Source: Candidatus Latescibacterota bacterium
GTDB taxonomy: Bacteria > Latescibacterota > UBA2968
Reading direction: 5' to 3'
Assembly (NCBI GenBank): GCA_965214925.1
Contig: OZ244028.1
Span: 3,863,009 to 3,927,008 of the forward strand
DNA length: 64,000 nt
The position numbers and the translations under genes are program-made. The notes under the pieces were generated by a model that saw only the letters and a list, made by a program, of their open reading frames with translations, was not told the origin of the DNA and searched no databases. Below, one piece after another: positions 8,894 through 64,000 of this stretch (position 1 is the first letter of the stretch; each line of letters starts with the position of its first letter).

Positions 8894-8894
8894 T

Positions 8895-9869: not shown

Positions 9870-9996
9870 TTGGTTTTCCTTTACATTATGGGCGTGGGTG
9901 ATTTTTCTTTGTGAACTTCAAATTGTCTCTTAACTTGCCATCAGGGATTTTACAACAGACAAGATACGGCGTCCTTTCCCATAGGAGAATTCCAAA

Positions 9997-12792: not shown

Positions 12793-12801
12793 GGAGGCAG
12801 G

Positions 12802-14295: not shown

Positions 14296-14422
14296 AGGAT
14301 AACGATCATGACATGGTCGGAAGTGATTGCAGAAAAAAATTTGCAAGACCTATAAAGGGGCAAAATATCAAAGTCTGTCCTGTTTCCAAACTTTCCCAGA
14401 TCAATTAACATACCCTTTGTGA

Positions 14423-15304: not shown

Positions 15305-15379
15305 ATGACCGGGCCGCCGGTCATTACCTGAGCGCGAAGGGAAATACAAAAATCTGGCAGAGTTCAGGAGATGGAGACA

Positions 15380-16300: not shown

Positions 16301-16529
16301 CTTTATCCCCTGAGATTTTGAAAAAACTCGGCGAATTGCGTCACGCGGGAGGGTATGAAACCATCGCGCAAGGTTTGGAACACGCCATTGACCATCATCT
16401 TTTGGAGTTGCGCTGTCAAAGAGCAAAAAAATGAAAAAAAACTACAAGAAAAAGGGTTGACAGAGGATGAAATTCTCAAAGACTTTGAAATATTTCGCGA
16501 GCAATTGAGGCAAGGGGATGCAGCGACTT
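16283..16529 (+). pseudogene. Ribbon-helix-helix (CopG/VapB-like) antitoxin, apparently frameshifted in an A-run
   Basis: One frame gives SLSPEILKKLGELRHAGGYETIAQGLEHAIDHHLLEL, the RHH signature. The adjacent frame gives KLQEKGLTEDEILKDFEIFREQLRQGDAAT, and its stop overlaps the PIN gene start. The track shows no intact 60-aa ORF here. Confidence 0.35.
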
Positions 16530-16940
16530 GAGCTTGTTGTTGATGCAAACCCATTGATTTCCGCGCTCATGGGCAGGCAAGCATTAAAATTGTTGTTCAG
16601 TCCATTATTTTTTTTATAACAGAACGCACAACATGGAAAGTCAAAAGATATATCCCAGAGATTGCACAGCGTCTTGAAATCGCAGAAATTGAAATCCCAG
16701 ATACATTTAAAGACTTTCCATTAATCGCTTACCAATCAAATCTCTATAGCCCTGCTCTTAGTCGCGCAACAAATACAATTGGGCTTCGCGATCCAAAAGA
16801 TATAGACATTCTCGCTCTCGCATATCATCTGAGAACACCATTGTGGCCCCATGATCTCGATCTAATAGAAATAGAAGATATTCAAACTGTTACCACGCGA
16901 GATTTGCTAACAGTCATAGGCTACATAGAACAAAACAAAG
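16518..16940 (+). pseudogene. PIN-domain (VapC-like) toxin gene, disrupted near a T8 homopolymer
   Basis: N-terminus MQRLELVVDANPLISALMGRQALKLL is a PIN signature. After a frame change, DIDILALAYHLRTPLWPHDLDL gives the C-terminal PIN acidic motif. ATG 16518 overlaps the antitoxin stop (ATGcagcgacTTGA). Confidence 0.4.
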
Positions 16941-16941
16941 A

Positions 16942-16979
16942 AGCCCTCCTGTTTTCGCAGGAGGGCTTTTGTGTTTGTG
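16942..16979. terminator. Bidirectional rho-independent terminator
   Basis: AGCCCTCCTG-ttttcg-CAGGAGGGCT followed by TTTTGTGTTTGTG. On the minus strand it is followed by TTCTTTGTTTTGTTC. It lies between convergent genes. Confidence 0.6.
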
Positions 16980-17000
16980 ATTGCCGCGTGAGCGTGCCGT

Positions 17001-18197
17001 TTAGACAGAAGCGGTTTGGCGCGCGTCTTCAATTTCCGCATCGAGATTGCCCGACAGGTCGTTGTTGCTGAAGTGAACGCGCGCTGCTTTTTCGCCAATG
17101 TGAACGCCAATGCGTTGGGTTGTCGTCTCGCTGTTGCCAATGCGATTGTTTGTGAACGTGAGATCGTGCGTTTCCCCCAAGATACGCACGCCATACCCCT
17201 CCTGTTCATTGCCATTGTCAAGAATCTGATTGTTCTCAAACGCGTTTCGATGCCCGCCCATGGGTTCGGATTCATCGCGAAAGAGGATGCCTTCACAGCC
17301 ATTGCGCAAAGATCGGTTGTTTGAAAACATATTGTCGGTGTCTTTGTGACCGATGGAGATGCCCGTGTTGCCATTGCCGATGAGATCGTTGTTTTCAAAA
17401 ATTCCGTGTTTTACGCGCCAGCACAGGAACAGACCGATGCGACCATTATTTTCTGAGCGACAGTTGCGAATGGTGGGGTGTTGACTGCCACTGCCCGGGT
17501 GCAAGCCCAGGTGGGTATTGCCCCTACAGGTACAGTTTTCGACCATGACGTGCTGGCTCTGCTGGAAACTGATGCCGTCGCCGTGGTAATTTTTGACCAC
17601 ACAGTTTTGCAAAGCAGTGCGGTGCCCCCGATAGAGAAAAATGCCCGCGCCTCGGCACCCATTGAGGTACGGATTGTTTTCGCCATTGCCATCTACAACC
17701 AGATTTTCGACTCGAGCATTTTCGATGTGATATCCGCTGATGACCGGAAACGCGGTCGCCGCACGCGCATTGCGAGAAATGAGATAATCACTCCCCATGG
17801 GCACATTGACCCCAAAGGTACTGTCCCGTTGCCAGAGAAGTGTGCCAACGGCTGTGTGAAATCCGCCCGCGCGATCATCCGTGATGCTCACGCCATAGCC
17901 AACCTTAAATCCGTCGGGGTTTTCAAGGGTGATCTGTTCTTCCCCAAAATCTCCGTCGAGATGAAGTAGGCATTCCACGCCATCTGCCTTCCGCAATACG
18001 GTATTTTCGCCCTGCCCCCTGACTGTGATGTTGCTGCGAAGATGCAGCGCGTCGCGCATGATGTACGTGCCGGACAGGATTGTAACAGTGCCGCCACCGA
18101 GTGGAGAAATATAATCAACCGCAGCTTGCAAAGCGCGATGGTCATTGCCGATGATGTCGGCGTCCCGTTGCCCAACCGTGATGTGTAAGCCAGTCAT
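17001..18197 (-). CDS. Right-handed parallel beta-helix repeat protein (pectate-lyase-fold / NosD-like)
   Basis: Many short N-x-(I/V/L)-x-x-N repeats (NNDLIGNGNTGISIG, FENNQILDNGNE, FTNNRIGNSE, FSNNDLSGN) typical of beta-helix proteins. Confidence 0.7.
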   Translation of the reverse strand: MTGLHITVGQRDADIIGNDHRALQAAVDYISPLGGGTVTILSGTYIMRDALHLRSNITVRGQGENTVLRKADGVECLLHLDGDFGEEQITLENPDGFKVGYGVSITDDRAGGFHTAVGTLLWQRDSTFGVNVPMGSDYLISRNARAATAFPVISGYHIENARVENLVVDGNGENNPYLNGCRGAGIFLYRGHRTALQNCVVKNYHGDGISFQQSQHVMVENCTCRGNTHLGLHPGSGSQHPTIRNCRSENNGRIGLFLCWRVKHGIFENNDLIGNGNTGISIGHKDTDNMFSNNRSLRNGCEGILFRDESEPMGGHRNAFENNQILDNGNEQEGYGVRILGETHDLTFTNNRIGNSETTTQRIGVHIGEKAARVHFSNNDLSGNLDAEIEDARQTASV

Positions 18198-18212
18198 GAA
18201 AGTCTCTCCAAA

Positions 18213-19256
18213 TTACGCAATGTGGATTTCCCGTCGCGTCTCACCGCTTTTGAGAAGGGCTTCCATCATCTGCTGCACCTGAAACCCGTGGCGCAGGGGG
18301 GCTTCGCAGGGCGTGCCATCGAGGATGCAGTCAATAAAGTGAGCGGCAATGCGATCCCATGACTGGGTCCGGCGCGGCATGTCGACGGCGATGTCGTGTG
18401 GGGCACCATCCTGTGTTTTGAAAAGTTTGAGCGGGCGGAACTGCGCACCGGCCTCGTCGCCAAAGAGTTCGATCTGGAGTTCATTGGGCTGGTGCGACGC
18501 CCAGAAACTCTCGACCTGGAGACCCGCGCCATTTTCAAAGCGAATAAAGCCCCCGGCATAGTCGTCAGCAGCGTATTGTTCCCATGTGCTTTGCGGCACG
18601 TCCCGAAAGCCCCAATAGCCCCGCCCGCGCGGGCCAAATTTTGCACCGCATACACCGGTGACCGTGACGGGTTTGGGCATGCCGAGCAAGTACCACACAG
18701 CGTCGAGAACGTGGACGCCCATATCGCGAAATGCACCGCCCCCTTTTTGGATGAATCCGAGGTTCCATGCGGGAATGCCGCTTCGCCGCACACTGCGCGC
18801 GCGCGCGTAGTAAAGGTCGCCAAAATAGCCTTTGCGCGCGAGGTCCGCAAGGTACTGGCAATTGTCGGAAAATCGCGTGGAAAGCGACATCATGTTGACC
18901 ACGCCAGATGCTTCCGCGGCTTCCACGAGTTGTTTTGCCGCGTCCTCGGAATCCGCCAAGGGTTTGGTGACTAGCACATGCTTGTCGTTGCGAACGGCTT
19001 CGAGCGCAATGGGCACGTGCCACTGGTTGGGCGTGCCGACAAAAACCGCGTCGATGTCCGCGTCTTTGCACATTGCTTTGTAATCGGTGTAGAACTTCTG
19101 TTCGCCGGGCAAGTCGCGGGCAAATTCTTCCATTCTGTCCGGCAAGAGATCGCACAAAGCAACGACTTCGCCTCGCGCATTTCCAGCAAGCGCGCGACCA
19201 TTGGGTTTTCCAATGCCCATACCCACGACGCACACGCGAACTCTGTTGTCTGACAT
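18213..19256 (-). CDS. Gfo/Idh/MocA family oxidoreductase
   Basis: N-terminal Rossmann VRVCVVGMGIGK plus C-terminal Gfo/Idh/MocA domain. Start chosen at MSDNRVRV, with AGGAG 7 nt upstream. Confidence 0.85.
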   Translation of the reverse strand: MSDNRVRVCVVGMGIGKPNGRALAGNARGEVVALCDLLPDRMEEFARDLPGEQKFYTDYKAMCKDADIDAVFVGTPNQWHVPIALEAVRNDKHVLVTKPLADSEDAAKQLVEAAEASGVVNMMSLSTRFSDNCQYLADLARKGYFGDLYYARARSVRRSGIPAWNLGFIQKGGGAFRDMGVHVLDAVWYLLGMPKPVTVTGVCGAKFGPRGRGYWGFRDVPQSTWEQYAADDYAGGFIRFENGAGLQVESFWASHQPNELQIELFGDEAGAQFRPLKLFKTQDGAPHDIAVDMPRRTQSWDRIAAHFIDCILDGTPCEAPLRHGFQVQQMMEALLKSGETRREIHIA

Positions 19257-46383: not shown

Positions 46384-48069
46384 TCAATCCTCAAATCCTG
46401 AAAATCCCGATCTGTTTTGGATGATCTCTCGCAGGGCCCTGCGCTGGACTTTGCCCGTAGAGGTCAAGGGACAGTCGTCGCGCGCAATGGGGATCACGCG
46501 CGACGGGGCTTCGTAGATGCTCAAGTTCGGGATTTGACCGGTTTGCCCGCGCCGAAGAATATCCGAGGCTGTTTGTTCGGGATGTTTGATCTCGGGTTTG
46601 AAAATGGCTGCTGCACAGATGTCTTCGCCCCACCTATCGTGACGGAGGCCGATCACGTAAACCGCGTCGAGTTCAGGACAGGCGTGGCGCAGGGCGTTTT
46701 CCACGGCGATGGGTGAGATGTTGACGCCGCCTTTGATGATGATTTCCTTTTTGCGACTGTGAAAGAAGTAGAAACGGCGGCCGTAGATGTCGCGGTAATA
46801 CCCCATGTCGCCGGTGTAGAACCAGCCCTTGCAGAAGACCTCCGCGGTGGCTTTGGGCCGGTTGAGGTAGCCATTGGCAACTACGGCACCGCGCACGAGG
46901 ATTTCGCCAATATCGCCTTCGCCTGCCTCACCTTCAATACACAAGTTGTTGTTGGCGAGCTCAACGCCGAGGGCGTTTTGTTCGAGCACGTCGCGGTATT
47001 GCTCATCGGGTAAGTTGGGTGGCACACCCGTCACGCGCAAGCTGACTTCGGTCGAGCCATATCCCTGAACGAGGCGAACGCCAAAGCGGTCGACAAACTG
47101 ACAGGCGATGTTGGGCGGCACAGGTGCAGAGCCGATCATGATTTTTTTTAGTGAAGATGTGTCATGGCCTTCGCGCTCAAAGTCGTCCGCGCGGGCGATC
47201 AGGTCGGCCATGATGGTCGGTACAATGCTGGCAGAGGTCGCGCGTTCCCGCGAGATGACGCGCCAGAACGCGGAGACACTGTAGCGCGAATTGAGGATGA
47301 GTGTGCCGCCCGCCATGAGGCAGGCTATCGAGAATGTGGTGGAATTGATGTGGTGGAGCGGCAAGACGAGATCGAGGCGTTCGCGAACATCAAATCCGAG
47401 CCAGCGAATGATGCCATCGGCATTGGATGTGAGGCTTTGTCGGGTGATGCGCGCGCCTTTGGGTTGGCCCGTTGTGCCAGATGTGTAGAGCACGATGTTG
47501 GGGTGTTGTTCGCATGCGATATCGCCAGACCACTCGGGCTCGAGATCTGCGTCAGGTGCATCGGAGGCGAGCAACTGATCCGTTGTTGCAATTTGGATAT
47601 CGGGCAATGACCTATTCGCGCAGTGGTGGCCTAGTTCTCGGCGTTGGGTTTCGGCATGGCCGGGCAAAACGACGAGCAGGCGGGCCGCGGCGTTTGCCAT
47701 TTTGTAGCGTTTGCGCGCGGGAACGTCTTTGGCGAGGTCGAGGGGAACAGCGGTCGCGCCGAGCCGAAAGAGGGCGAGGGTGAGCAGGGGGATTTCCGCG
47801 CAGTTGGGCATCGCAAGCCCAACGCAGTCCCCGCGTTGGATGCCAAAGTCGCGGTGCATTGTGCCCGCAAGCGCGGCGGTGCGCCGTTCAAATTCAGAAT
47901 AGGTGATAACGGTGCGCGCGTCCGTATCGCAATCGCGAAAGATCAGCGCGGGTTTGTCGGGCTGATGTTCCGCGCGATCTTTTAAGAGATGCGTGAAGTT
48001 GCGCCACGCAAAGCGGTAGGTGTGGGGTTTGCCGTTTTTTGTGCAGGTGAAAATTTTGGAGTCGATCAT
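46384..48069 (-). CDS. AMP-dependent acyl-CoA synthetase/ligase
   Basis: AMP-binding motif LYTSGTTGQPKG and a C-terminal ligase domain. Start at MIDSKIF. Confidence 0.85.
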   Translation of the reverse strand: MIDSKIFTCTKNGKPHTYRFAWRNFTHLLKDRAEHQPDKPALIFRDCDTDARTVITYSEFERRTAALAGTMHRDFGIQRGDCVGLAMPNCAEIPLLTLALFRLGATAVPLDLAKDVPARKRYKMANAAARLLVVLPGHAETQRRELGHHCANRSLPDIQIATTDQLLASDAPDADLEPEWSGDIACEQHPNIVLYTSGTTGQPKGARITRQSLTSNADGIIRWLGFDVRERLDLVLPLHHINSTTFSIACLMAGGTLILNSRYSVSAFWRVISRERATSASIVPTIMADLIARADDFEREGHDTSSLKKIMIGSAPVPPNIACQFVDRFGVRLVQGYGSTEVSLRVTGVPPNLPDEQYRDVLEQNALGVELANNNLCIEGEAGEGDIGEILVRGAVVANGYLNRPKATAEVFCKGWFYTGDMGYYRDIYGRRFYFFHSRKKEIIIKGGVNISPIAVENALRHACPELDAVYVIGLRHDRWGEDICAAAIFKPEIKHPEQTASDILRRGQTGQIPNLSIYEAPSRVIPIARDDCPLTSTGKVQRRALREIIQNRSGFSGFED

Positions 48070-48095
48070 TTTGACATTTCCATTGAGCCTTTTTG

Positions 48096-48434
48096 TTATC
48101 CCAAAAGAATATTTCGGCATTTCTCAATCAGATCGGGAAGATGATTTTTGATGATATCCCAGACGATTTCATTGTCGACAACACCGTAACCATGGGCAAT
48201 CACATTTCGGAAGTCAATTATGTCACGTAGATTTGAAATTTGTGTAGCAAGACTTGGATCATAACGAGAAATACGGTTTAAAGCTTCCCCAATAATCTCA
48301 AATTGACGCTCAATGGCAGACCGAATCAAAAGATCGCCAACATAATCTTCATAGGACCATCCAGATACAAATGTTTGTATGTTTTCGACTGCTGATATGA
48401 CATCATGCAGATAAGCGCGAGAATCATGCTGCAT
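48096..48434 (-). CDS. hepT: HepT-like (DUF86) ribonuclease toxin
   Basis: Rx4HxY motif RNVIAHGY. It overlaps the upstream MNT gene by 11 nt. Confidence 0.8.
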   Translation of the reverse strand: MQHDSRAYLHDVISAVENIQTFVSGWSYEDYVGDLLIRSAIERQFEIIGEALNRISRYDPSLATQISNLRDIIDFRNVIAHGYGVVDNEIVWDIIKNHLPDLIEKCRNILLG

Positions 48435-48726
48435 AAAGTGTTTTCCTGGTTGCCTTAGCGATTTGTTCTTTGATAAATGGATTTTGGATCTGATTTTCTT
48501 TGAGCAAATCTACCCTTCTCCCAAACAAGCTTTCCAACTCTCTTTTTAAGATCATAAAGCGTTTGAAGATATCCTCTGTGCTTTCAAACTCATAAAAAAA
48601 ATCGATATCGCTGGTCGCCGAATCAAAATCATCGCGCAATGAAGAGCCAAACACTTCCAAACGCTTGACTTCCAAACGCACACAGATTTCAGTTATTGCC
48701 TCGGTATAATGATCTAAATTTAGCAT
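48424..48726 (-). CDS. mntA: MNT-type nucleotidyltransferase antitoxin
   Basis: Minimal NTase motif FGSSLRDDF...SDIDF. Start at MLNLDHY with RBS AAGGAAAG. The track's longer N-terminal extension is unlikely. Confidence 0.8.
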   Translation of the reverse strand: MLNLDHYTEAITEICVRLEVKRLEVFGSSLRDDFDSATSDIDFFYEFESTEDIFKRFMILKRELESLFGRRVDLLKENQIQNPFIKEQIAKATRKTLYAA

Positions 48727-48876
48727 CTCATACTTTCCTTTTTTTGTCTGCGGAAATTTAATGCTTGCCCGCCCATGATAGCACACCGTGTGAAGAATCT
48801 GTTTTTTTTCGTATTCTCCAGGGCATCCTTTCAGGCTACATGTCATTTTGATCGGCCTCTTTGTGTGATCCATTTT

Positions 48877-49959
48877 TTATCCTCTTTGCCCACGCTGGCG
48901 CAAATAGTGATCCGCCAGGACAAGGGCTATCATGGCTTCGACAATGGGAACCGCGCGAGGTAGGACGCAGGGGTCGTGGCGACCGCGGCCTTTGAGGGTG
49001 GTGGGGTTGCCGTGGATATCGACGGTTTCTTGTTCGGGCAAAATCGTGGCGGTGGGTTTGAAGGCCGCGCGGATGACGATGGGTTCGCCGTTGGAGATGC
49101 CTCCCTGAATGCCGCCCGAATGATTCGTGCGCGTGTGAATGCTGCTGCCATCGTTGTAAAAGGGGTCGTTGTGTGCAGTGCCGGTCATGGCAGTGCCGCC
49201 AAAACCAGAACCGGACTCAAAGCCTTTGCACGCGGGCAAAGAGAGCATGGATTTGGCGAGGTCGGCTTCGAGTTTGTCAAAAATGGGTTCCCCCCAACCG
49301 GGGGGGACGCGATGGGCAATGGCTTCGACCACGCCGCCGAGAGAGTCCCCGTCTTTGCGCGCGGCATCGATGCGCCGAATGATTTGCTCGGCAATGTCGG
49401 GTTTGGGCACGCGGGCGATGTTCGACTCGACCTGTTCTCGGGTCACCGCGAGGGGGTCCACATTGGCAACGAGGGTGTGAACCTGGCGAACATACGCGAT
49501 AATGTTGATGTTGCAATCGCGTTTGAGCAATTTGCGCGCAACAGCACCTGCTGCAACGCGCCCGATTGTTTCGCGCGCACTGGCTCTGCCGCCGCCTTTC
49601 CAGTTGCGAATGCCGTATTTTTCCTGATAGGTATAGTCCGCGTGCGAGGGACGGTATTTGGTGCGTATTTCTTCATAGTCTTTGGCACGTGCATCCTTGT
49701 TCCACACCATCATCGAGATGGGCGTGCCCAGGGTGTGCCCTTCAAAGAGACCCGAATGGATTTCCACGCGGTCTTCTTCTTTGCGCTGCGTGGTGATTTT
49801 GCTCTGCCCCGGCCTGCGGCGGTCGAGTTCCACTTGGATGTCTGCTTCGCTGATCGCCAAACCGGGCGGGCATCCATCCAAGACAACGCCAACGCCGCCG
49901 CCGTGTGATTCTCCCCATGTGGTGATGCGAAATGCACGGCCATAAGTGCTGCTCATAAC
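48877..49959 (-). CDS. aroC: Chorismate synthase
   Basis: N-terminus [30 protein letters not shown] and the conserved RPGH/SARE motifs. Confidence 0.9.
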
Positions 49960-55396: not shown

Positions 55397-56272
55397 TCAT
55401 CTCCTCCTTTTAAGCCGCGTCTGTGCCTTTTGCAGTAAATCTCTTGGATCTATTTTGGAGTGTGTTTCAATCATCTTTGACCTTGTATTTTGTGAGGAGC
55501 GTTTCTCTCGTTTGTCGGTACTGTCCAATTGTGACAATGAAGCATCTTTCAATAAAAGGTCCAAAACGCGATGTGCTTGTTTGCGTTTCAACAACCCTCT
55601 ACTTACGACTATTTGTGCATCAATGCCCAAAAGACAATCCAAACAGGCAGTCTCACAATGGTTATGATGTTCCTGGTTGACATAAAGAACGCGCAACGCT
55701 TCTTCAAGCCCTAAACGACCTAGCCCTAACAATTCTCGAACATGACCAGCACCACCGGCGACATTGTCATAAAGTACAACACCCCATCCAGAGCCATTCT
55801 TGCCAGTCGGTATAGTCATCACGCCAAGTTCACGTGTATCCAGTTCAAGCACCTGAACTCCTGCTCTTTGCAATGCATATCCCAACGTTGTAATCAAAGC
55901 AAGGTCCCGTGCCTGAGCATCTAGACATCCCACAAAATCAACCATCAATACATCCGTAATTTCACGAGCCGCTAACACTTGCCTTCGGAGAATATGGGAT
56001 TCTCCATCATGCCAGCAACGACTCCAAGGGTTTGAAGAATGTAAAGGCGCATGGTTGACAAAATTAGGGGGAAGGTTCTGAATGCCATTGCCGTAACCCG
56101 TTTCACTTTCGGCAAAACCACACTTGAGACAAATAGCAAATCCTCGGTGGTTTTCGCCTTTATTGTACACCAATATTTCCCCATCTTCCTGATAGTAACA
56201 AGTCAACCCTCGTATATCTCCCAAATTTTCGACGGATATATTTGCCTCATTGCGACCCTGTAAAAACGCCAT
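55397..56272 (-). CDS. DUF1998-like zinc-ribbon protein (MrfA/DrmB-type C-terminal module) as a separate ORF
   Basis: Cys clusters CLKCGF and HHNHCETACLDC. It lies immediately downstream of the SF2 helicase. AT-rich. Confidence 0.45.
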   Translation of the reverse strand: MAFLQGRNEANISVENLGDIRGLTCYYQEDGEILVYNKGENHRGFAICLKCGFAESETGYGNGIQNLPPNFVNHAPLHSSNPWSRCWHDGESHILRRQVLAAREITDVLMVDFVGCLDAQARDLALITTLGYALQRAGVQVLELDTRELGVMTIPTGKNGSGWGVVLYDNVAGGAGHVRELLGLGRLGLEEALRVLYVNQEHHNHCETACLDCLLGIDAQIVVSRGLLKRKQAHRVLDLLLKDASLSQLDSTDKREKRSSQNTRSKMIETHSKIDPRDLLQKAQTRLKRRR

Positions 56273-56301
56273 GGTAGCTGTCTCAACAGAACCAATGCGT
56301 T

Positions 56302-58308
56302 CTACATCGGTGCTAAATTAATGGGAAAGCCATAATGAGGCAAAAATTGCCGATCAGCCAAACCCTCAATAACCGTAATTGCATGCAGAGCGCGCAATTG
56401 ATAATGAATTGCGTTAGCCTGTGCCTGCTGTTCTTCTCCAGTCGTACGCCAACTTGACAGTAAATTCTCATATTCTTCGCGCCAACTGTAAATGCCCTCG
56501 CGAAAACCATCAATGGAATGTTGTAAAAAGCTGTGCCAATCCTCTAATTCTTTCAACAACTGGGTTTCACGCAACAAGATCTCAATCGCATTACCCAGTA
56601 CCTCTTGTCCCTTGTCTCGTACCCAATTCATATAGCTTAAAAACTGTGTCTCCAGACCAGGTACCTCCGACTCGGGATTCCACCAAGGCAAATCAAGCTG
56701 ATATTCCGATGCAATAGGTGTTTGAATACTCGGTTTGGGATCTCCCTTCTTCCAGTATGCCACCTTTGGCACACCACAAAAATTGCCCATGTTGCCAAAT
56801 GCGTTCATTGCTCTCACATGTTGATCTTCAGGATAAATGGCCCGGAAAAATTCTCCGAGTAAAAAGGAGTGAAAATGACGCTTCACGACCCGATTGCGAT
56901 CGAGAAAGACCAAAGGTTTGCGTAAAGGACGCTCAAGGTAGTCGCCAACGCGATTGAAAACTTCTCGATCATAGGGCTGTGGTCGGGCATAGGTTATCAC
57001 AGCAGAAGAGCCATCAGACCGACGGCCGGCACGGCCGGCACGCTGTAAATAGTTGGCCTTTCCTGGCGGCACATTGCTCATTAAAACCGCGTTCAAACCG
57101 CCAATGTCAATGCCCAATTCCAGGGTCGTTGTCGCACTCAAAATATTGCGAATGCCATATTTGAAAAGGTCCTGTAATCGCCTATTTTCATGGGGCGATA
57201 ACTGTGCACTGTGTTCTTCTGCCCACAACCCCATCTGAAAAACTTCTGAATTGCGATACTCGCGCCGCTGCCGCCCGACGCGAGCATCTTTGTCCAGTTC
57301 GTCATCTGATATGGGTCTTAACGTGCGATTACAACCCAATTCGGGCGCACAGTTCAAGATGCTACGATACCAGAGGTGTCCCGTCTTTTCACAGCGATAG
57401 AGATCGGCGGGACGCCGCAGGCCCAAATGGTCAAAAACCAACTGAATGGCATCTTGTGTTGGTCCAGTGCCAGACTGTCTTATGTGGTACTGAAGCCAGG
57501 GCAATTCTCCATCCGAAGGTTTTTGCCCCGCAAGATGCGCCGCTTTCATCAACTGCCCAAATGCCATTCTGAGCATCCGACCAGCCAAGTCTTCTATGTC
57601 ATCTGAAACACCGCAGGCCCTCAATACCTGGGCGGCAAACCACAATCTGCGTTGCCGCAGAGATTGTCCCACGAAACTAACCAATCGGTTGCCAGATGTT
57701 TGTTCTGCACACCAATAGCCTATATAGGGCACATCAAACGAACCATTTTTCAAGGCACCTGAATCTTCAAGCGCAATAATCCCATTGGATCTAAGCGTGT
57801 CACACAATGCTTTAAGGAAATCTCCCCATACCCTAATCAGTTGATCTCGAACCTTCTCATAGGGCAAAATACCAAGTAATTGATTGGGCACTTTCAATTC
57901 ATCAATCCCGGGATAGGTCACTTCAATTAGACCGAGGTTTTCCAATGAATTGAAGCCGCGATAGGTACGGGCAAATTCGCATGCCAAATACGATCTAGCA
58001 TGCCGCTTCACTTGTTCATGATTCTTTTCCCATTCTTGTTGCCCCCAAATTTGTCCATCTTTTTCAGGCAGGTGATGAGAGGCTGACGCGCGGTCCAGCA
58101 ATTCTGATAGGAGGAGTTGACGAGCCAGTTTTTTACACCAGTCATCAATAGAACCACCTGCGGCTGCGCTTTGTGCCTGTAATCTCCAAATTTGCAGGGT
58201 GTTTTCGATTATGTGCCTTAACCCAGGATCAAGATCAGGATTTTCAAGTTGCTTTTCTTGTTCCCTGATCATTTTCTCAATGCCAGCAACCGTTTCTTCT
58301 CCTCCCAA
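56302..58308 (-). CDS. SF2 DEAH helicase, C-terminal part (RecA-like domain 2 plus large insertion and C-terminal domain)
   Basis: Helicase motif V/VI: ILSATTTLELGIDIGGL and YLQRAGRAGRR. The frame remains open upstream of the track's TTG start, which suggests a 1-nt frameshift relative to the upstream ORF. Confidence 0.65.
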   Translation of the reverse strand: MGGEETVAGIEKMIREQEKQLENPDLDPGLRHIIENTLQIWRLQAQSAAAGGSIDDWCKKLARQLLLSELLDRASASHHLPEKDGQIWGQQEWEKNHEQVKRHARSYLACEFARTYRGFNSLENLGLIEVTYPGIDELKVPNQLLGILPYEKVRDQLIRVWGDFLKALCDTLRSNGIIALEDSGALKNGSFDVPYIGYWCAEQTSGNRLVSFVGQSLRQRRLWFAAQVLRACGVSDDIEDLAGRMLRMAFGQLMKAAHLAGQKPSDGELPWLQYHIRQSGTGPTQDAIQLVFDHLGLRRPADLYRCEKTGHLWYRSILNCAPELGCNRTLRPISDDELDKDARVGRQRREYRNSEVFQMGLWAEEHSAQLSPHENRRLQDLFKYGIRNILSATTTLELGIDIGGLNAVLMSNVPPGKANYLQRAGRAGRRSDGSSAVITYARPQPYDREVFNRVGDYLERPLRKPLVFLDRNRVVKRHFHSFLLGEFFRAIYPEDQHVRAMNAFGNMGNFCGVPKVAYWKKGDPKPSIQTPIASEYQLDLPWWNPESEVPGLETQFLSYMNWVRDKGQEVLGNAIEILLRETQLLKELEDWHSFLQHSIDGFREGIYSWREEYENLLSSWRTTGEEQQAQANAIHYQLRALHAITVIEGLADRQFLPHYGFPINLAPM

Positions 58309-59606
58309 TCTTTTTCTAACACATGGATCGAAGGCGCGGCTCCCAATGTCTTATTGAGCAGACGGGCTGGCACCTCCAGTTCTTTTACCCGATCCACCAA
58401 ATCCGAATTGACCAAAACCGGCAATTGTTGTCGCAACTGGTGACACATATCTCTATCTTTAGCCAGTGTAGGCTGCATATCTTCATCATAGGTCATCAAA
58501 GGGCGGTCCAGCCAGTCCTGTTGAATCAAGTCGTCTGGCGTACTATCCCACTTTGGCGGCGCAGGAATGTCCAGATCAACACGGGTTGAGCGTCCCTCTA
58601 TAACCCGAACCTGATCAATTGATTTTGAAAAAAGCCTTGCGGCAAATCTCTTGAGATCATTTTGATTGCCCGACCCAAGCGTTGCAGAGGTCGCCATTTG
58701 TAGAATATCCGAAGAAGAAACCCCACAACGAAGGGCAAGACGCCGCAATAAGAGCGTGATTTCAGCAGCCAATGTTCCCGTGTATAAATGCGCTTCATCC
58801 AGAACCACGGCACGTAGCCCTGGCCCAAAGAATACGGAATCTTGTGGCCTACATAGCATGTATTCCAGCATGGAATAATTCGTCACAAGAATATCTGGAA
58901 CTTGGTCGAGATTAGGTGGACTTTGCTTTCCTCCTGTTTTTGGTTTTTCCTGCCCTCTGGCCTCTTGTCTGGTGCGGACGCGGCAGGCGTCCCAATCGGA
59001 TATGCCCTGACGGTCTGCCGTTCTTTTATTTTCTGGCGTTTCACTGGTAAAATGAAAAAGACGGACGTGTGTTTGGCCCTGAAGCCAACTATAGAGTCGA
59101 TTTACCTGATCATTGACCAGCGCATTCATAGGATATAAGATGATGCACTGCACACCTTCTTGTTTCGTCGGGGACGCGTAGAGCGCGTTTAGAATGGGTA
59201 ACAGAAACGCCTCTGTTTTACCTGCGCCAGTACCAGCAGTTATAACCACGGCTGGCTTTTTATCCTGTTTTTCCAAATCCTCAGCACAACATATGGCCTC
59301 ATATTGATGGGTATAGAGAGGCCGGTCAGGAGGTACAGCCCCAGTTCTATTCAATTGCTCGAGAAGCAGAGCGTCAAATCTTCCGGCATCAACCAACTTG
59401 CCCAGTGTCCAGTCAGACTGCTCTGCTGGGAAATTTCCCTCAACCCACAGATCGCTCAATAACCCGCCATTTTGTGGCGTTGAAGACCATAACTCGCGAC
59501 AAATATCGACTAACTGCGGATCATTTACAAAGTTGTTGTCCACACAAAAATCAGTCAACCTTTGACGGATATTTTCAGACAATTGTAGCGCGTCAAGTTG
59601 TGACAT
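58269..59606 (-). CDS. SF2 DEAH helicase, N-terminal part (RecA-like domain 1)
   Basis: Walker A ITAGTGAGKTEAF, motif II VVLDEAHLYTG, motif III MATSAT. It overlaps the next ORF by 40 nt. Confidence 0.7.
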   Translation of the reverse strand: MSQLDALQLSENIRQRLTDFCVDNNFVNDPQLVDICRELWSSTPQNGGLLSDLWVEGNFPAEQSDWTLGKLVDAGRFDALLLEQLNRTGAVPPDRPLYTHQYEAICCAEDLEKQDKKPAVVITAGTGAGKTEAFLLPILNALYASPTKQEGVQCIILYPMNALVNDQVNRLYSWLQGQTHVRLFHFTSETPENKRTADRQGISDWDACRVRTRQEARGQEKPKTGGKQSPPNLDQVPDILVTNYSMLEYMLCRPQDSVFFGPGLRAVVLDEAHLYTGTLAAEITLLLRRLALRCGVSSSDILQMATSATLGSGNQNDLKRFAARLFSKSIDQVRVIEGRSTRVDLDIPAPPKWDSTPDDLIQQDWLDRPLMTYDEDMQPTLAKDRDMCHQLRQQLPVLVNSDLVDRVKELEVPARLLNKTLGAAPSIHVLEKDWEEKKRLLALRK

Positions 59607-59615
59607 AAAATACTC

Positions 59616-61112
59616 CTAAAGATTGCGGATTACATCGCTAAGGATATTGACGCAAAGATAGCGATTAAAAGGCTGCACATTCATTGCTATTTCAAGGTTT
59701 TCTCGCTCAATTGCTGGCAGGGACCGCTTGTGTCCAGCTTTTACCAATTTCATACCATTTTTTGCTATATGTAAAATAAAAAAAGTGTTGACCATCATGC
59801 TTTGAGCGGCTTCATCAAGACGCTTTTTCTCCTCAATTCTGATGTCTCGGTCAGAAGTTCGTGATGGCAAATGCAGAAAGCGGCACTTAGCACTTTGCAA
59901 ATGATCAATCCATTCGGATTCCTCGAAATTTCTGTAACCCGAAACCAACAATGCCTGCAACATACGCCCCATAAAAATGGGGTTTATTATGTGTCCCAGA
60001 CGATGGAGTGCCTCTCCTAAGTTGACCAGAGGTTGATCGTGCATCATCAAATCAACAATGGCCGATGCGTGTTCAGGTGCAACATGAACCTGAGAGAATA
60101 ATCCTCCAACATTGGCAAACCATATTTCATCCTTGTCAAAGCACAGTCCTTCCGGAAGTCCTTGATTCTGTACCCAAGCGGAAAGCACAGCGACCAAGTT
60201 TGTTTCGATGAAGCGGATAACTTGCTCTTTCCATGTTGGCTTGAGGATGGGGAAATGTAACCATCGCATCATCGCTGCCACATTTTGGACGCGTTCAGTA
60301 TCCAGAAAATCCAAAATATCTATGAGATCTTCGCACCAACTTCCCATACGCTCTCCACGATACGCAATGCCGCAGGCAATCAAAGGGCTATTGACTTTCA
60401 CGAACCATTGCCGACCATTATACGCCCCGATTTCAAATTGAGACACAAGTCCATTGGGTGATACACCAATTAAGAAATGATCAGGACCTAGCTCTACATC
60501 TCTGTGCATGAAAATCTCAACAAGAGTTTCATCTATCAGCACCCGATCTATAATCCCACGGTCAATTACTTCTGTCGCTAGCGTCAACAGCTTTTCTTCT
60601 GGCAAACAGTTATAAGGTTTTTGGACTTTCAAAGGTGCGCCCAATCCCATCAATCCGCTGAGTGTTCTAGGTCGCTTCCATAACCTGCGTAAGAACCCAC
60701 TGCCTTCCATCAAAGCGAGACCTTTGAAACGCTCCCCTTGCCAATACTTTGGAACGAAAATTTGCACAGGATCGGATTCCAGTTCTTTAACTGTTATACC
60801 GCGTCCCATAAACATCGGCTCCCAATGAGCCTTTCGATCAATGACCGATCCCCTGAAGTCTAAATCAATTGGCAATCGAACCCGCTTTTTTTCTCCGTTG
60901 CGGTCCAAACGAAGCTCAATTTTGCTCCCTCGCCAGACAGCGAATGCGACCTCTGGTGTCAACTCAATCTTTTCAATTCGCCCCACCCCTGGTAGGGCTG
61001 TGACTGCGACGGGCCTTTTACAGAAAATGGCGTGCGAAATTTTGACTTTAGGAGGGATATTTTCGATAATCACATCAAATTTGTCTCCAAACTCCAATGT
61101 GGTATTTGGCAC
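59616..61112 (-). CDS. Hypothetical protein (498 aa), island component
   Basis: Long AT-rich ORF co-oriented with the helicase and tightly spaced. No recognisable motif. Confidence 0.55.
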   Translation of the reverse strand: MPNTTLEFGDKFDVIIENIPPKVKISHAIFCKRPVAVTALPGVGRIEKIELTPEVAFAVWRGSKIELRLDRNGEKKRVRLPIDLDFRGSVIDRKAHWEPMFMGRGITVKELESDPVQIFVPKYWQGERFKGLALMEGSGFLRRLWKRPRTLSGLMGLGAPLKVQKPYNCLPEEKLLTLATEVIDRGIIDRVLIDETLVEIFMHRDVELGPDHFLIGVSPNGLVSQFEIGAYNGRQWFVKVNSPLIACGIAYRGERMGSWCEDLIDILDFLDTERVQNVAAMMRWLHFPILKPTWKEQVIRFIETNLVAVLSAWVQNQGLPEGLCFDKDEIWFANVGGLFSQVHVAPEHASAIVDLMMHDQPLVNLGEALHRLGHIINPIFMGRMLQALLVSGYRNFEESEWIDHLQSAKCRFLHLPSRTSDRDIRIEEKKRLDEAAQSMMVNTFFILHIAKNGMKLVKAGHKRSLPAIERENLEIAMNVQPFNRYLCVNILSDVIRNL

Positions 61113-61161
61113 TGCCTTGATCTGAATTTTTTGTTCCCAATCGGAGAGACCAGATGTGGAT

Positions 61162-63480
61162 TTATCCGACTTTATAAAGAGGCGACCAAAAATCTTCTCC
61201 TTCCCAGGTAATTTTTAAGTCAGACGACCAACCTTTTTGCAATAAAATCAACCGCCACTTTCCTTCCCCAACAAGCCGCCAGGGATCAACAGGCGGTTCA
61301 ATATCGAGGTCTGCCAAAGTAATCAGTCCATATTGTGACTGCGTGTCCATCTGTCTTTCCCAAGCATTGATTTTGCGCCCTGATGGAAACTGAAAGACAC
61401 TGACAGCACAATCATCTTCTTCATTCCAGAGTTGGATTTCCTGCGTATAACATGTTCTGCCTCCCAAATCACATAGATGGATGACCTGCTGAGGGCTTTC
61501 AAGAGGTATATGGACTGTCTCCGGACCGCGATAGCCGCCATTGACATCTCTAAAAAGCGATCCCAAATGCCGTTCGCCTACAAAAAGATCGTAGTGATCG
61601 TCGATGAGGTCGATTAAATCAAGCCGTTGCAGAGTGCATTCAAAAAATGGCACGTCAACACCATCCCATTGAAGCCTAGGTTTCTCAATTAGCAAAATAT
61701 GTTGCTCATTATCCTCAATGTTAGGCTCGTCACCCCCATCTGCTGATCCTGTGGCAAGCTTGTTGTTAAGTTTCTCAGCCGACTTTGCAGCATCCAGCAC
61801 ATCCTTTGTTTTTTGAGGTAAAACCCAGGGATTGATATCGAGAATTTTAGCAGCCTGATCCCGCGATATGCGGTTGAAGCGAAAATCTCTCAACGTTTGG
61901 AATAGCTGATGGAAACTCTCACTTTTTAAGTGCGCTCCTAACAACAACTCGAACGCTCGAAGATTTTTATGTCCCGTCAACATCAGAGGGAGTTGTTTAA
62001 GATGGGATAAAGCAAAGCCATATTGTAATGTCATGGTGATGTAATAACTTTGCGTACCTTCCCGACCCAAAACATGCCGCAGATTAAATTTTCGACATGT
62101 AGTCTCTATCACATCTTTGAATCTTGGATTGATCCCCTGTTCACCCTGAAAAACAATTTTTCTGGCATCCTCATTTAATCGTCTGCGTACAAACGGCCAG
62201 AGCATGCTTGATACAGCTTCTCTGCGACCAATCTCCGCAGCAAAAAGAAGCAGTAAAAGACCGGTTCCCAAAGCAACTGGAGTGACATTTCCTTCCCCCC
62301 ATTCAAAGTATTGGTCATAATCATCTAGCAATGCGCGCAAAGTAGATGCGTCAATATGCTTTGCCCATAAAATCAACCATTGATACCCCTCTCGATCGAG
62401 ATGCAATTCGCATAAAGAGCGAGGCTTTGGCATAGCCTCGATGGCTTTAATAATTCGCAAGATGGCCTCACGCACTGCACTGGGATCTTTTGGATTCAAT
62501 CCACTAAAAATATTTTTGTAATGGTTTTCCTCATTTTCCATTTCTGCCAAAATCGCGTCATAATCTAAACTGCTATCCCACCGGGGGAGTGTTGTGTCTT
62601 CCAACTTGGATTCAGATGGGTTTTGTAAAATTTCCTCTTCTGCATATTTACGTAAGGCATAAACAGCACGATCTACTTTTATCACATGTGTGCCTTGCCG
62701 TGCTAAATTTTGAAGCACAGAATTGATTCTGCTGGTTGACAATCCGCCGGGAAAGTTTGGAAATAACTCCTGGGCCTTTTCTGCGATTACTTTAAAGTGG
62801 GCGGGGCATTTCAGAAAATTCAGCGTTCGAATGATGCAAGGTCTCAGGCCTTTAGGGGAGCGGTGGCTTTTCTCTGCATATAGAAATAGAATATTCCCTT
62901 CTGCTTTGCTAAGCCCGCCAGCACATGTGCTTGCAGCAATTGATAGATAGTTTTCTTTTTTTCTGTCGTATTCATTCTCCCAAAATTCCAATCCGGGAGG
63001 CCCTCCTAAGTTCTTTCCCCAATTTATCCACAGCCAGTCACTATCATAGACTTGAATTGGTTCTACCATTGCAATTGTTTTCAAAATCTGGCACAAGCCA
63101 CGACTTGTAATCCGTTTTTGAAAATAATCTTCCATCTTTTCTGCAATCATATCAGGATGCACAAGGCGCATGGATGGCAAATCAAAAAGGTTTTGTCCCA
63201 AAACATAACCAAATGTTTTCCGAAATGAAGGGCGCAAGAGCCGATCAACTGCTTTGTTAAGCCTTTGGCGTGCTCTTTCTCTTGTAACCCCCAACAACTG
63301 GCCCAATTCTTCAAGTTTATGTCCATCGAGCAACCTTCTCTCTAACAAAGTCCTTTCTTCGTCATCAAACTGAGATAACCAATAACCGTCATGGACGCGA
63401 TCAACAGGGATAGGTTTTGAATTTTGACATTGAGCACGCACTTGAAATCCATCCCAGGAAAGCACCACTTCAGCTTGCAA
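61162..63480 (-). CDS. Large hypothetical protein (772 aa) with N-terminal sigma-70 region-4-like HTH
   Basis: EERTLLERRLLDGHKLEELGQLLGVTRERARQRLNKAVDRL resembles sigma-70 r4 / LuxR-type HTH. The remainder is unassignable. Confidence 0.55.
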   Translation of the reverse strand: MQAEVVLSWDGFQVRAQCQNSKPIPVDRVHDGYWLSQFDDEERTLLERRLLDGHKLEELGQLLGVTRERARQRLNKAVDRLLRPSFRKTFGYVLGQNLFDLPSMRLVHPDMIAEKMEDYFQKRITSRGLCQILKTIAMVEPIQVYDSDWLWINWGKNLGGPPGLEFWENEYDRKKENYLSIAASTCAGGLSKAEGNILFLYAEKSHRSPKGLRPCIIRTLNFLKCPAHFKVIAEKAQELFPNFPGGLSTSRINSVLQNLARQGTHVIKVDRAVYALRKYAEEEILQNPSESKLEDTTLPRWDSSLDYDAILAEMENEENHYKNIFSGLNPKDPSAVREAILRIIKAIEAMPKPRSLCELHLDREGYQWLILWAKHIDASTLRALLDDYDQYFEWGEGNVTPVALGTGLLLLLFAAEIGRREAVSSMLWPFVRRRLNEDARKIVFQGEQGINPRFKDVIETTCRKFNLRHVLGREGTQSYYITMTLQYGFALSHLKQLPLMLTGHKNLRAFELLLGAHLKSESFHQLFQTLRDFRFNRISRDQAAKILDINPWVLPQKTKDVLDAAKSAEKLNNKLATGSADGGDEPNIEDNEQHILLIEKPRLQWDGVDVPFFECTLQRLDLIDLIDDHYDLFVGERHLGSLFRDVNGGYRGPETVHIPLESPQQVIHLCDLGGRTCYTQEIQLWNEEDDCAVSVFQFPSGRKINAWERQMDTQSQYGLITLADLDIEPPVDPWRLVGEGKWRLILLQKGWSSDLKITWEGEDFWSPLYKVG

Positions 63481-64000
63481 TCCCCAATATTGAGAAAAAA
63501 AAAAAACGTACGCATATAGGAGGCGGATATGTTCTTATCGCCTAATTTTTCGACCATCCCGACCAGTTCCAAAAGGCCCCATAGCTTGTCTGTCTCCAAT
63601 TGATAGGGACTGGATATCAACCGGCAGATTCTCTCGCCAAGCGTATCAGTGATAGGTTCTTTTAAGTCTGCATGCAAGCACCATGTCAGCAGATATCCAC
63701 AGGCCGACTCGATCAGCGTTTTTAGCGGTATAAATCCCTTGGGCGGAAATTTGTCTTTGGGCTCAAGCGCAACATAAGCGGGATGATGAAGCAAAACCTT
63801 TTCCACTTGTGATAGCGAGACAACATATTCATCGTTTCCATGATCAATCCAATCATAGATTCGTGCTGCTGTACGCGCAGGCGCAGAAATTTTTGCGGTC
63901 CAACCGAGCAATCTTTCAAGATGTTTTGAGGCTACGGGCACTGAACTGTCAAAGCTGTTATCCACACCCTCAACTGTTGTTTTAACGGTCTTGTACGGAT
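63342..64000 (-). CDS. Hypothetical protein, 5' partial (frame open to window edge)
   Basis: ORF continues upstream beyond 64000. Its 3' end overlaps the start of the 772-aa gene across an A13 homopolymer (63494-63506), so the true stop is uncertain. Confidence 0.3.
   Translation of the reverse strand, partial: PYKTVKTTVEGVDNSFDSSVPVASKHLERLLGWTAKISAPARTAARIYDWIDHGNDEYVVSLSQVEKVLLHHPAYVALEPKDKFPPKGFIPLKTLIESACGYLLTWCLHADLKEPITDTLGERICRLISSPYQLETDKLWGLLELVGMVEKLGDKNISASYMRTFFFFLNIGDCKLKWCFPGMDFKCVLNVKIQNLSLLIASMTVIGYLSLMTKKGLC

Follow-up and report, generated by a model that had tools for sequence, protein, structure and literature searches.

A probable Druantia type III-like two-gene cassette, disrupted by deletions, in a Candidatus Latescibacterota genome

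The minus-strand region at 55.4-64.0 kb of the window (the whole 64,000-nucleotide stretch of DNA analysed) is likely to be a low-GC cassette of two genes, of Druantia type III-like make-up, that was acquired horizontally and has recently been inactivated. Intact frames of orthologues align colinearly with all six open reading frames (ORFs) of the region, and on this sequence comparison the six are fragments of two genes, not separate genes. The upstream gene encodes a large protein, here called the partner, while the downstream gene encodes the helicase DruE.

Six reading frames and the two genes behind them

The following ORFs were delineated from the ORF list and the translations:

63342-63965, minus strand, partial upstream ORF
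61162-63480, minus strand, 772-aa ORF
59616-61112, minus strand, 498-aa ORF
58269-59606, minus strand, 445-aa helicase ORF, in a frame that differs from that of the 668-aa ORF
56302-58308, minus strand, 668-aa helicase ORF, overlapping the 445-aa ORF in another frame
55397-56272, minus strand, 291-aa ORF

An earlier note on this DNA had described five co-oriented minus-strand genes of low GC in a chromosome of ~60% GC. The coordinates bear out the shared strand, and GC is indeed 42-49% over 55.4-64 kb; the remaining window is about 50-58% GC, averaging about 53-55%. The helicase, taken to be a single ORF of roughly 1100 aa, is spread over two ORFs in different frames (445 and 668 aa). The Walker A, DEAH, SAT and QRAGRAGRR motifs reported for it are readable in the translations of these two ORFs, which match the Pfam DEAD (E=8.9e-22) and Helicase_C (E=7e-12) families. 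Pfam likewise agrees with a sigma-70 region-4 helix-turn-helix (HTH) in the 772-aa ORF (Sigma70_r4, PF04545, residues 34-81, E=7.1e-10) and with the DUF1998 likeness of the 291-aa ORF (MZB/DUF1998, E=2.2e-8). On its downstream side the island borders on rplM and rpsI, with rpsB and tsf coming next. A search of the window for tRNA genes came back empty, and promoter- or terminator-like sites occur in it no more often than expected by chance. Exact-sequence look-ups with the 498-aa ORF and with P0001 gave no match.

Comparison with the intact orthologues replaces the proposed five genes with the following fragments and lesions:

63495-64000, minus strand, partner fragment 1, aa 39-182 of the intact 1481-aa orthologue (L003)
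63497-63499, minus strand, frameshift 1, a 1-nt deletion in the partner (MAFFT DNA alignment against L003 and L004)
61171-63531, minus strand, partner fragment 2 (the 772-aa ORF), aa 170-957 of the orthologue, 66% identity by tblastn
63238-63381, minus strand, sigma-70 region-4 HTH (PF04545) in the N-terminal extension of the partner
61168-61172, minus strand, frameshift 2, an 8-nt deletion in the partner that divides the 772-aa from the 498-aa ORF
59613-61169, minus strand, partner fragment 3 (the 498-aa ORF), aa 961-1481, 68% identity by tblastn
58272-59606, minus strand, DruE fragment A, aa 1-444, RecA1/DEAD with Walker A and DEAH
58272-58308, minus strand, junction of deletion 1 in DruE (blastn against L001, L003 and L004)
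56314-58308, minus strand, DruE fragment B, aa 690-1358, the remaining inter-RecA insertion and RecA2/Helicase_C (QRAGRAGRR)
56317-56321, minus strand, junction of deletion 2 in DruE (blastn and junction sequences)
55400-56341, minus strand, DruE fragment C, aa 1470-1783, MZB/DUF1998 and the C-terminal tail, lacking a nuclease domain

Partner fragment 1 is 64% identical to the 1481-aa protein over 63926-63495 (tblastn), with the start codon of the gene located ~40 nt past the window end. The tblastn frame changes between 63495 and 63531. The final ~80 codons of fragment 2 correspond to the N-terminus of a 599-aa homologue in L001, and aa 2-79 of P0002 map to window positions 61404-61171. In the DNA alignment, the 8 nt missing at frameshift 2 are present in L001, L002, L003 and L004. 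Going by the AlphaFold model of P0006, fragment 3 would contain the final Ig-like domains as well as the helical domain at the C-terminus.

The DruE fragments all match the PADLOC DruE3 model PDLC00037: fragment A with E=5e-66 (84% to L001 DruE by tblastn), fragment B with E=1e-72 (83%) and fragment C with E=8.5e-30 at profile positions 1460-1705 of 2055 (75%). This agrees with the earlier proposal of a defence-type helicase/DUF1998 locus of low GC, although what had been taken for a helicase gene and a separate DUF1998 gene both derive from a single DruE. Deletion 1 removed ~750 bp (DruE aa ~445-689) and carries an imperfect short repeat at its junction, and deletion 2 removed ~365 bp (aa ~1359-1469); both altered the frame. 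The DruE gene of L004 carries an IS element within the same segment that deletion 2 removes in the window.

Given the 1-nt and 8-nt deletions in the partner and the ~750-bp and ~365-bp deletions in DruE, the window locus is the remnant of a pseudogenised cassette, and this copy should confer no phage defence. All remaining differences between the window and intact L003 are in-frame indels. Between window fragments and intact copies, dN/dS is 0.14-0.26, similar to the 0.15-0.19 among intact copies, and the fragments contain no additional internal stop codons; judged on these two measures, the inactivation is recent.

It is highly improbable that the window copy is instead a functional, naturally split system with separate polypeptides, on the model of DISARM, in which DrmA supplies the helicase and a distinct protein, DrmB, the DUF1998 part (PMC12458937). 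Every fragment is open with a possible start codon and its dN/dS is still low, but compared with orthologues at 75-85% protein identity, the breaks are deletions that shift the frame. Furthermore, ~245 and ~111 DruE residues are lost, RecA1 and RecA2 lie on different polypeptides, and the 1-nt and 8-nt deletions fall in conserved sequence of the partner; three other genomes hold intact copies, while further copies are visibly decaying. Only marginally more credible is the proposal that the lesions arose in sequencing or assembly, the cassette of this genome being intact. Single-base indels are numerous in the low-coverage relatives (L002, 2x; L004, 4x), but the source contig spans 4.70 Mb, the deposited gene calls are also truncated (P0001, 397 aa; P0004, 662 aa), and clean 8-nt, ~750-bp and ~365-bp deletions would be unusual for errors.

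Intact relatives and comparison with named systems

Both genes are whole in three other genomes of Candidatus Latescibacterota, with single open frames of 1481-1490 aa for the partner and 1779-1780 aa for DruE (L003/L009, L008 and L010). On the PADLOC DruE3 model the intact DruE orthologue reaches 736 bits (E=3.6e-221), compared with 513 bits on DruE1 and at most 340 bits on the DruE2 and DruE4 models. Its match to the DruE3 profile stops at position ~1701 of 2055. Pfam identifies DEAD, Helicase_C and MZB, the C-terminus lying ~70 aa past MZB, and C-terminal PLD nuclease domains are absent from DruE of the window and its relatives. Among solved structures, the nearest is 9tu7 (E=3.9e-82), a helicase of 2108 aa.

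The limits of the cassette can be seen in base composition. In L010, GC is 62-65% around the two genes and 44-49% over them, the change coinciding exactly with their limits; in L008 the corresponding values are 52-55% and 41-46%. Flanking genes vary from genome to genome, and no third conserved gene was found across L001, L003, L008, L010-L015 and L023. On the basis of the GC block and the absence of a third conserved gene, the system is exactly two genes. Elsewhere, the neighbours of the cassette encode NERD, HsdR, GmrSD, Dnd-associated proteins, SMC-like ATPases, transposases and an integrase, and further copies are decaying via IS insertion, truncation or fragmentation. A related-locus search with alignment A1 found no match in metagenome or viral contigs; among genome contigs, the same search returned three Latescibacterota genomes only.

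These observations also bear on whether the cassette could be a housekeeping DNA-repair module of the MrfA/YprA-like kind and not a defence system. DruE does belong to the YprA/MrfA helicase family (6znp, E=2e-15) and the window locus adjoins ribosomal protein genes. However, the DruE3 score is far above YprA-like scores, the GC is anomalous, insertion sites are variable and decay is frequent, neighbours elsewhere are defence or mobile genes, and an MrfB-type exonuclease is absent, making a repair role very unlikely. MrfAB was likewise rejected as a classification.

The closest parallel to the Druantia III-like cassette is subtype III-B, exemplified by M. smegmatis MSMEG_1253/1254 (representative DruE GIH50614.1). 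Each consists of a closely packed pair of genes in the same orientation, the first for a large partner and the second for a DruE without nuclease, and both are cassette-like and horizontally mobile. The III-B-type and cassette DruE proteins are each ~1670-1780 aa with DEAD, Helicase_C and MZB, and DruE3 is the best HMM. The nuclease-less architecture thus resembles subtype III-B; the likeness derives from DruE and gene order, with the III-B DruH compared by description. III-B differs in the partner, which in Latescibacterota is ~1480 aa, bears a sigma-70 region-4 extension and matches no DruH/YjiT model. The operon plan is also shared with subtype III-A of E. coli and P. aeruginosa (9tu7 DruE, 9tud DruH), in which DruE is homologous across the helicase core and DruH has the same domain order as that predicted for the partner. 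In contrast, III-A DruE is ~2100 aa with two terminal PLD domains that the cassette DruE lacks, and III-A DruH belongs to the YjiT/STY4851-ECs_5259 family (NF038336). The partner fails to match this family, and its sequence resemblance to DruH is limited to a borderline match of motifs in the N-terminal domain.

Other named systems fit less well. In Druantia I and II, DruE is accompanied by DruA-D or by DruM/F/G; PADLOC found none of these in the window or L003, where DruE is the sole Druantia-type match, and types I and II were ruled out for a cassette of only two genes. DISARM (DrmA, DrmB with DUF1998, DrmC with PLD, and a methyltransferase) shares the YprA-family helicase and the DUF1998/MZB module. 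It was rejected as the separate 291-aa DUF1998 ORF is the product of the 365-bp deletion inside DruE, and as the DrmA models score 35 and 64 bits versus 244 and 736 bits for DruE3. No methyltransferase, PLD or SNF2 gene was present in any cassette examined. In ARMADA, a BrxHII-like helicase and a PglX-like methyltransferase accompany the YprA-like helicase (PMC12458937), and neither of these companions lies beside the helicase in the loci examined.

The earlier note held that the gene set matches no named combination. This applies to the partner, which matches no named family in PADLOC or NCBIfam, but the layout is the Druantia III plan: HMM scores identify the helicase as a canonical DruE, even if the partner is not a recognisable DruH. 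As the ORFs are fragments of DruE and of a protein in the DruH position, the locus follows a known two-gene plan and does not represent a new five-gene combination.

The partner family and its relation to DruH

A search using P0006 alone as query, clustered at 50% identity, yielded 585 representative clusters at E<=1e-3 that share a conserved partner core of ~950 aa. The suggestion that homologues of the 498- and 772-aa proteins co-occur with the helicase holds: in 8/8 loci with the downstream region retained (L003, L008, L010, L011 of Gimesia, L012/L013, L014, L015 and L023), a DEAD/Helicase_C(/MZB) gene begins at most ~20 nt from the partner stop. The four linked helicases that were scanned score 645-745 bits on DruE3.

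An AlphaFold2 model of P0006 (48-sequence alignment; mean pLDDT 78.6, pTM 0.70) contains helices at 215-484, beta-sandwiches at 505-950 and helices at 955-1183. The predicted core layout, an N-terminal helical region, an Ig-like array and a C-terminal helical region, would match that published for DruH, a likeness drawn by description. The corresponding model of P0002, built on a 5-sequence alignment, was uninformative (pLDDT 38).

None of 13 PADLOC DruH3 models (PADLOC-DB v2.0.0) matched the partner or its family at E<=1, while 12 models match the positive control, E. coli YjiT (best 1828 bits). Similarly, family members do not match the NCBIfam YjiT_fam model NF038336 (release 20) at E<=1, with the E. 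coli control at 1258 bits. By these PADLOC and NCBIfam searches, the partner appears to match no named protein family. In a PDB sequence search, P0005 matched sigma region 4 only and the family profile matched nothing. Comparison of the family profile to E. coli YjiT by hhalign gave a probability of 0.6%. When the profile was compared with 9 aligned sequences of the N-terminal domain of DruH, hhalign returned E=0.014 and a probability of 3% over 33 columns only, the score of 25.6 compared to a maximum of 24.7 in 150 column shuffles. The partner and DruH have motifs in matching order, RSL...(D/E)Y..L, AAE-xx-RR-x8-W and PxW, and the residues RSL, AAE-xx-RR and W coincide with those reported essential in P. 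aeruginosa DruH. The published DruH size is 1096-1132 aa versus ~950 aa for the partner core. Similarity of the partner to DruH is thus borderline at the sequence level. DruH itself is hyper-divergent, to judge by the alignment of E. coli YjiT with 9tud DruH, which extends over ~250 N-terminal residues only.

There is a substantial chance, if short of even, that the partner is an independent analogue and not a DruH homologue, which would make the cassette a Druantia-like subtype with its own RNA-polymerase-module sensing. DruH HMMs and hhalign all falling short of significance speaks for this, as do the Sigma70_r4, RNA_pol_A_CTD, TerB and Sigma70_r2 fusions in long members. Set against it are an operon position equal to that of DruH, a similar core size, a like layout, the hyper-divergence of DruH, the shared motif order and an hhalign score above all 150 shuffles.

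Proposed mechanism, significance and N-terminal modules

In the proposed architecture, gene 1 would encode the ~1480-aa partner, with a ~500-aa N-terminal extension (sigma-70 region-4 HTH) and the ~950-aa core. Gene 2 would encode the ~1780-aa DruE, a YprA/MrfA-family SF2 helicase with a large inter-RecA insertion and MZB/DUF1998. By analogy, the intact relatives most likely work as published for Druantia III: the partner would sense an infection cue or phage DNA intermediate and then engage DruE, which would load on single-stranded or forked DNA and unwind 3'->5', blocking phage replication. More speculatively, the sigma-4 extension probably adds a DNA or RNA-polymerase contact, or baits phage proteins.

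The window locus itself is a dead remnant that shows defence-gene turnover in Latescibacterota, and little more. Its relatives draw attention to ~950-aa "hypothetical proteins" upstream of nuclease-less DruE3-type helicases, which the tested DruH models miss. Screens in which a DruH model hit is obligatory would thus probably overlook such cassettes, which would leave Druantia III-like systems under-counted in metagenomes, Planctomycetota and Latescibacterota. Should the family prove to be a hyper-divergent DruH, the known range of DruH sequences widens and the few surviving motifs are marked out; if it is not, it is a new partner type.

Among long family members, N-terminal fusions comprise Sigma70_r4 (11/33), RNA_pol_A_CTD (5/33), TerB (2) and Sigma70_r2 (1). 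Proteins with Sigma70_r4 include P0005, P0007-9, P0010 and, more distantly related, P0186. We found no report of such fusions of DruH in the Druantia III literature consulted. The sigma-4/alpha-CTD fusions raise the idea of how some of these systems might sense infection. One conjecture, to which we give little credence, is that the partner family is a distinct infection sensor in which RNA-polymerase fragments serve as decoys for phage proteins, licensing DruE. Sigma-70 region 4, alpha-CTD and sigma region 2 would then mimic phage-hijacked surfaces of host RNA polymerase, and AsiA-like anti-sigma factors or Alt/Mod-like modifiers would bind or modify the bait, upon which DruE is licensed. No description of a decoy-based trigger was found in the Druantia literature consulted.

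A HARE-HTH-like winged helix was also suspected by eye in the N-terminal extension and was discarded, having no Pfam support at E<=0.1. MzaA of the MZA system is likewise a defence-associated protein with a sigma-70-type region-4 HTH, and P0186 matches the MzaA model with E=4.7e-8 and 32 bits (cutoff 800 bits) over the HTH only (~55 residues); the remainder of MzaA and its gene neighbourhood are unrelated to the partner family.

Six ORFs derived from two genes

Six minus-strand ORFs occupy window positions 55397-64000:

63342-63965, minus strand, 207-aa ORF
61162-63480, minus strand, 772-aa ORF
59616-61112, minus strand, 498-aa ORF
58269-59606, minus strand, 445-aa ORF
56302-58308, minus strand, 668-aa ORF
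55397-56272, minus strand, 291-aa ORF

The GC content of this region is 42-49%, compared to ~50-58% elsewhere in the window, and the genes rplM, rpsI, rpsB and tsf lie downstream. Pfam searches of the ORFs identified DEAD (E=8.9e-22), Helicase_C (E=7e-12), MZB/DUF1998 (E=2.2e-8) and Sigma70_r4 (E=7.1e-10), supporting domain assignments previously made by eye. The 445-, 668- and 291-aa ORFs were found to be successive parts of one DruE type III profile (PADLOC PDLC00037), matching positions 8-337, up to 1293, and 1460-1705, respectively. What had been read as a single ~1100-aa helicase is in fact two overlapping ORFs in different frames, and the supposed separate DUF1998 protein is the DruE C-terminus translated from an internal ATG.

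A word-indexed database contained very few homologues of the 498- and 772-aa ORFs (3 and 6 matches, respectively), among them proteins of 1183-1344 aa that span both. On the homologue contigs, a single 1344/1481-aa gene, here termed the partner, is followed by a 1780-aa DEAD/Helicase_C/MZB gene. A tblastn comparison of the intact orthologue proteins to the window gave the following map:

63926..63495, minus strand, partner aa 39-182
63531..61171, minus strand, partner aa 170-957
61169..59613, minus strand, partner aa 961-1481
59606..58272, minus strand, DruE aa 1-444
58320..56314, minus strand, DruE aa 690-1358
56341..55400, minus strand, DruE aa 1470-1783

The start codon of the partner gene is located ~40 nt past the window end. 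DNA alignments revealed four lesions, each of which alters the reading frame:

near 63498, partner, 1-nt deletion
~61170, partner, 8-nt deletion (bases present in 4/4 relatives compared)
58272-58308, DruE, ~750-bp deletion at an imperfect short repeat
56317-56321, DruE, ~365-bp deletion

The dN/dS of the window fragments relative to intact copies (0.14-0.26) resembles that among intact copies (0.15-0.19), and no further stop codons occur within the window fragments, indicating that inactivation is recent. The window copy is thus an inactivated, pseudogenised two-gene Druantia type III-like (III-B-like) cassette. The earlier note had described a candidate novel system of five genes in a ~60% GC chromosome; its ORFs, low GC and domains are confirmed, while the gene count, the single helicase ORF and the GC figure, an overstatement, are not.

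An IS element (DDE_Tnp_1/DUF4096 ORFs) at 9353-10121 of the relative locus L004 splits DruE within the ~365-bp segment lost cleanly from the window. The window deletion at 56317-56321 could be what remains of a comparable insertion and excision. Two further low-GC patches are present in the window (average ~54% GC), at 8001-10000 (44%) and 48000-49000 (40-45%), and may be other acquired segments.

The helicase is a nuclease-less DruE

When scored against PADLOC models, the intact helicase orthologue reaches 736 bits on DruE3 (E=3.6e-221), 513 on DruE1 and ≤340 on DruE2 and DruE4, with the DrmA, DpdJ and BrxH models all below 100 bits. Its closest solved relative is the 2108-aa DruE structure 9tu7 (E=3.9e-82), with YprA/MrfA (6znp) behind. 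The protein extends just ~70 residues beyond MZB, and its match to the DruE3 profile breaks off at position ~1701 of 2055; hence, the PLD nuclease domains borne by DruE of Druantia III-A are absent. In this respect, the Latescibacterota DruE resembles the compact, PLD-less form named III-B by Himpich et al. A Druantia type III-like branch with helicases most often devoid of a nuclease has been described by Bell et al. (PMC12458937), and the reported M. smegmatis pair consists of a 1132-aa DruH and a 1667-aa DruE.

The partner family and its relation to DruH

No PADLOC model matched any partner fragment, any intact Latescibacterota protein or any of ten distant members of the family, whereas the E. 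coli DruH/YjiT positive control matched 12 DruH3 models (best 1828 bits). The NCBIfam YjiT_fam model (NF038336) likewise matched the E. coli control but not the family. Comparison of the family profile with YjiT by hhalign was negative, and a PDB sequence search with the partner and the family profile gave sigma region 4 as the sole match. The partner family is a new element, missed by the DruH models of PADLOC-DB v2.0.0 and NCBIfam release 20, and the original interpretation, though not its five-gene system, is partly supported.

An exhaustive HMMER search with the Latescibacterota partner P0006 yielded 585 representative clusters, 448 of them at E≤1e-10, mostly 850-1060 aa in length. As most of these align to P0006 residues ~232-1180, the Latescibacterota partner comprises a conserved ~950-aa core and a ~500-aa N-terminal extension containing the sigma-4 HTH. 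In 7/7 loci retrieved for distant members, 17-31% identical to P0006 (distant-member loci: Gimesia L011, L012, L013, L014, L015, L023), a DruE-like helicase gene starts ≤~20 nt after the core gene; partner-helicase linkage is strict. Four of the distant-locus helicases score 645-745 bits on DruE3, with the nuclease end likewise missing. Genes near the distant cassettes encode NERD, HsdR, GmrSD, Dnd-associated and SMC-like proteins, transposases and an integrase. Around these cassettes (L011 7329-8996 and 17275-20871; L012/L013 flanks), other defence-type genes include a NERD/AAA_19 protein immediately upstream and HsdR and GmrSD downstream, together with SLFN/AlbA_2, a Dnd-associated protein and SMC-like ATPases; transposases and an integrase also occur there. 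In L011 the cassette itself spans 9001-17073.

The L015 partner (P0186, 1349 aa) also carries Sigma70_r4. In the N-terminal extensions of 33 long family members (set A6; e.g. P0039, P0186 and P0010), Sigma70_r4 is present in 11, RNA_pol_A_CTD in 5, TerB in 2 and Sigma70_r2 in 1. These fusions of the partner family to RNA-polymerase-derived domains are new. More speculatively, the sigma-4/alpha-CTD extensions could serve in DNA binding, in RNA polymerase tethering, or as bait for RNA-polymerase-targeting phage proteins. The family member P0039 (2171 aa) combines HHH_5 with two copies of alpha-CTD and a stretch weakly resembling PglW.

An AlphaFold2 model of P0006 (48-sequence alignment; mean pLDDT 78.6, pTM 0.70, with blocks largely >80 from residue ~215) displays a helical domain (215-484), several beta-sandwich domains (505-950) and a second helical domain (955-1183). 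This predicted layout appears to match the gross architecture of published DruH, for which structure searches also gave ICAM/NCAM-type Ig domains. At the sequence level, DruH itself is hyper-divergent: two E. coli DruH proteins, YjiT (WP_001513100.1; L007 9001-12291) and the 1119-aa DruH of 9tud_A, can be aligned only over ~250 N-terminal residues, pointing to very fast divergence beyond that domain. An alignment of 9 DruH N-terminal sequences (plasmid-borne STY4851/ECs_5259 genes, YjiT and 9tud) was compared by hhalign with the family N-terminal domain, giving E=0.014 and a probability of 3% over 33 columns, with "LLLLaAEvaRReA-EG-lW--v" opposite "F-lf-aEwfRRey----W-Wd". None of the 150 column-shuffled controls (mean 15.4, maximum 24.7) reached the score of 25.6, nor did the reversed (16.9) or the C-terminal (20.6) control. 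A relaxed alignment places family (P)RSL...DY..WL and PWvLPeW opposite DruH R.L..DGR.LY.Y..T..EY..L and P.W....P, in the same order. The P. aeruginosa DruH residues Arg22, Lys28 and Glu64, reported to be essential, seem to correspond by position to the RSL and AAE motifs, and the window sequence retains PRSLCEL, AAEIGRRE and LRHVLGREGTQ. The sequence link is suggestive, not significant, and we lean slightly towards the partner being a true homologue of DruH.

Cassette limits, decay and proposed mechanism

When one genome per species was scanned, full-length relatives were found only in three Candidatus Latescibacterota genomes, with both genes unbroken in loci L008, L009 (identical in sequence to L003) and L010. 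GC content falls exactly over the two genes, from 62-65% to 44-49% in L010, where the intact cassette occupies 9091-18912, and from 52-55% to 41-46% in L008; the flanks vary between genomes. Hence, the unit is a mobile two-gene cassette. Downstream of the cassette, two relatives (L003 16013-18361 and L004 12292-14640) encode a 782-aa protein that has no significant domain match, PIG-L and Glucosamine_iso being its sole, weak ones. By tblastn, this protein has no counterpart in the window, L001, L008 or L010, and is therefore probably host flank outside the system.

Decay of the cassette is common (L001, L004, L005, L023). In L001, DruE is intact and the partner is reduced to its 3' 599 codons, while in L005 a transposase cuts the partner and DruE is absent. 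L023 is an independent decayed copy: at 10873-15488, the DruE that comes after the distant member P0074 (951 aa) is broken into 561-aa DEAD and 758-aa Helicase_C ORFs and has no MZB call.

Gene content, domain make-up, the strict linkage and the window inactivation are direct results of the analysis. Following published Druantia III work, the partner would detect infection or DNA structure, with its C-terminal helical domain engaging DruE, which would bind exposed ssDNA or forked DNA and unwind 3'->5', providing direct defence without cell killing. Given there is no PLD nuclease, clearance would have to rely on unwinding or immobilisation, or on a putative nuclease activity of the partner.

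The E. coli yjiT loci of K-12 MG1655 and ECONIH1 appear to be additional decayed Druantia III cassettes. In K-12 MG1655 (L006 12415-16856), yjiT encodes 505 aa compared to 1096 aa for the full-length YjiT/DruH of ECONIH1, and the adjoining yjiV carries a pseudogene annotation. In ECONIH1 (L007 12304-18637), yjiT has downstream of it a helicase gene whose annotation records a frameshift.
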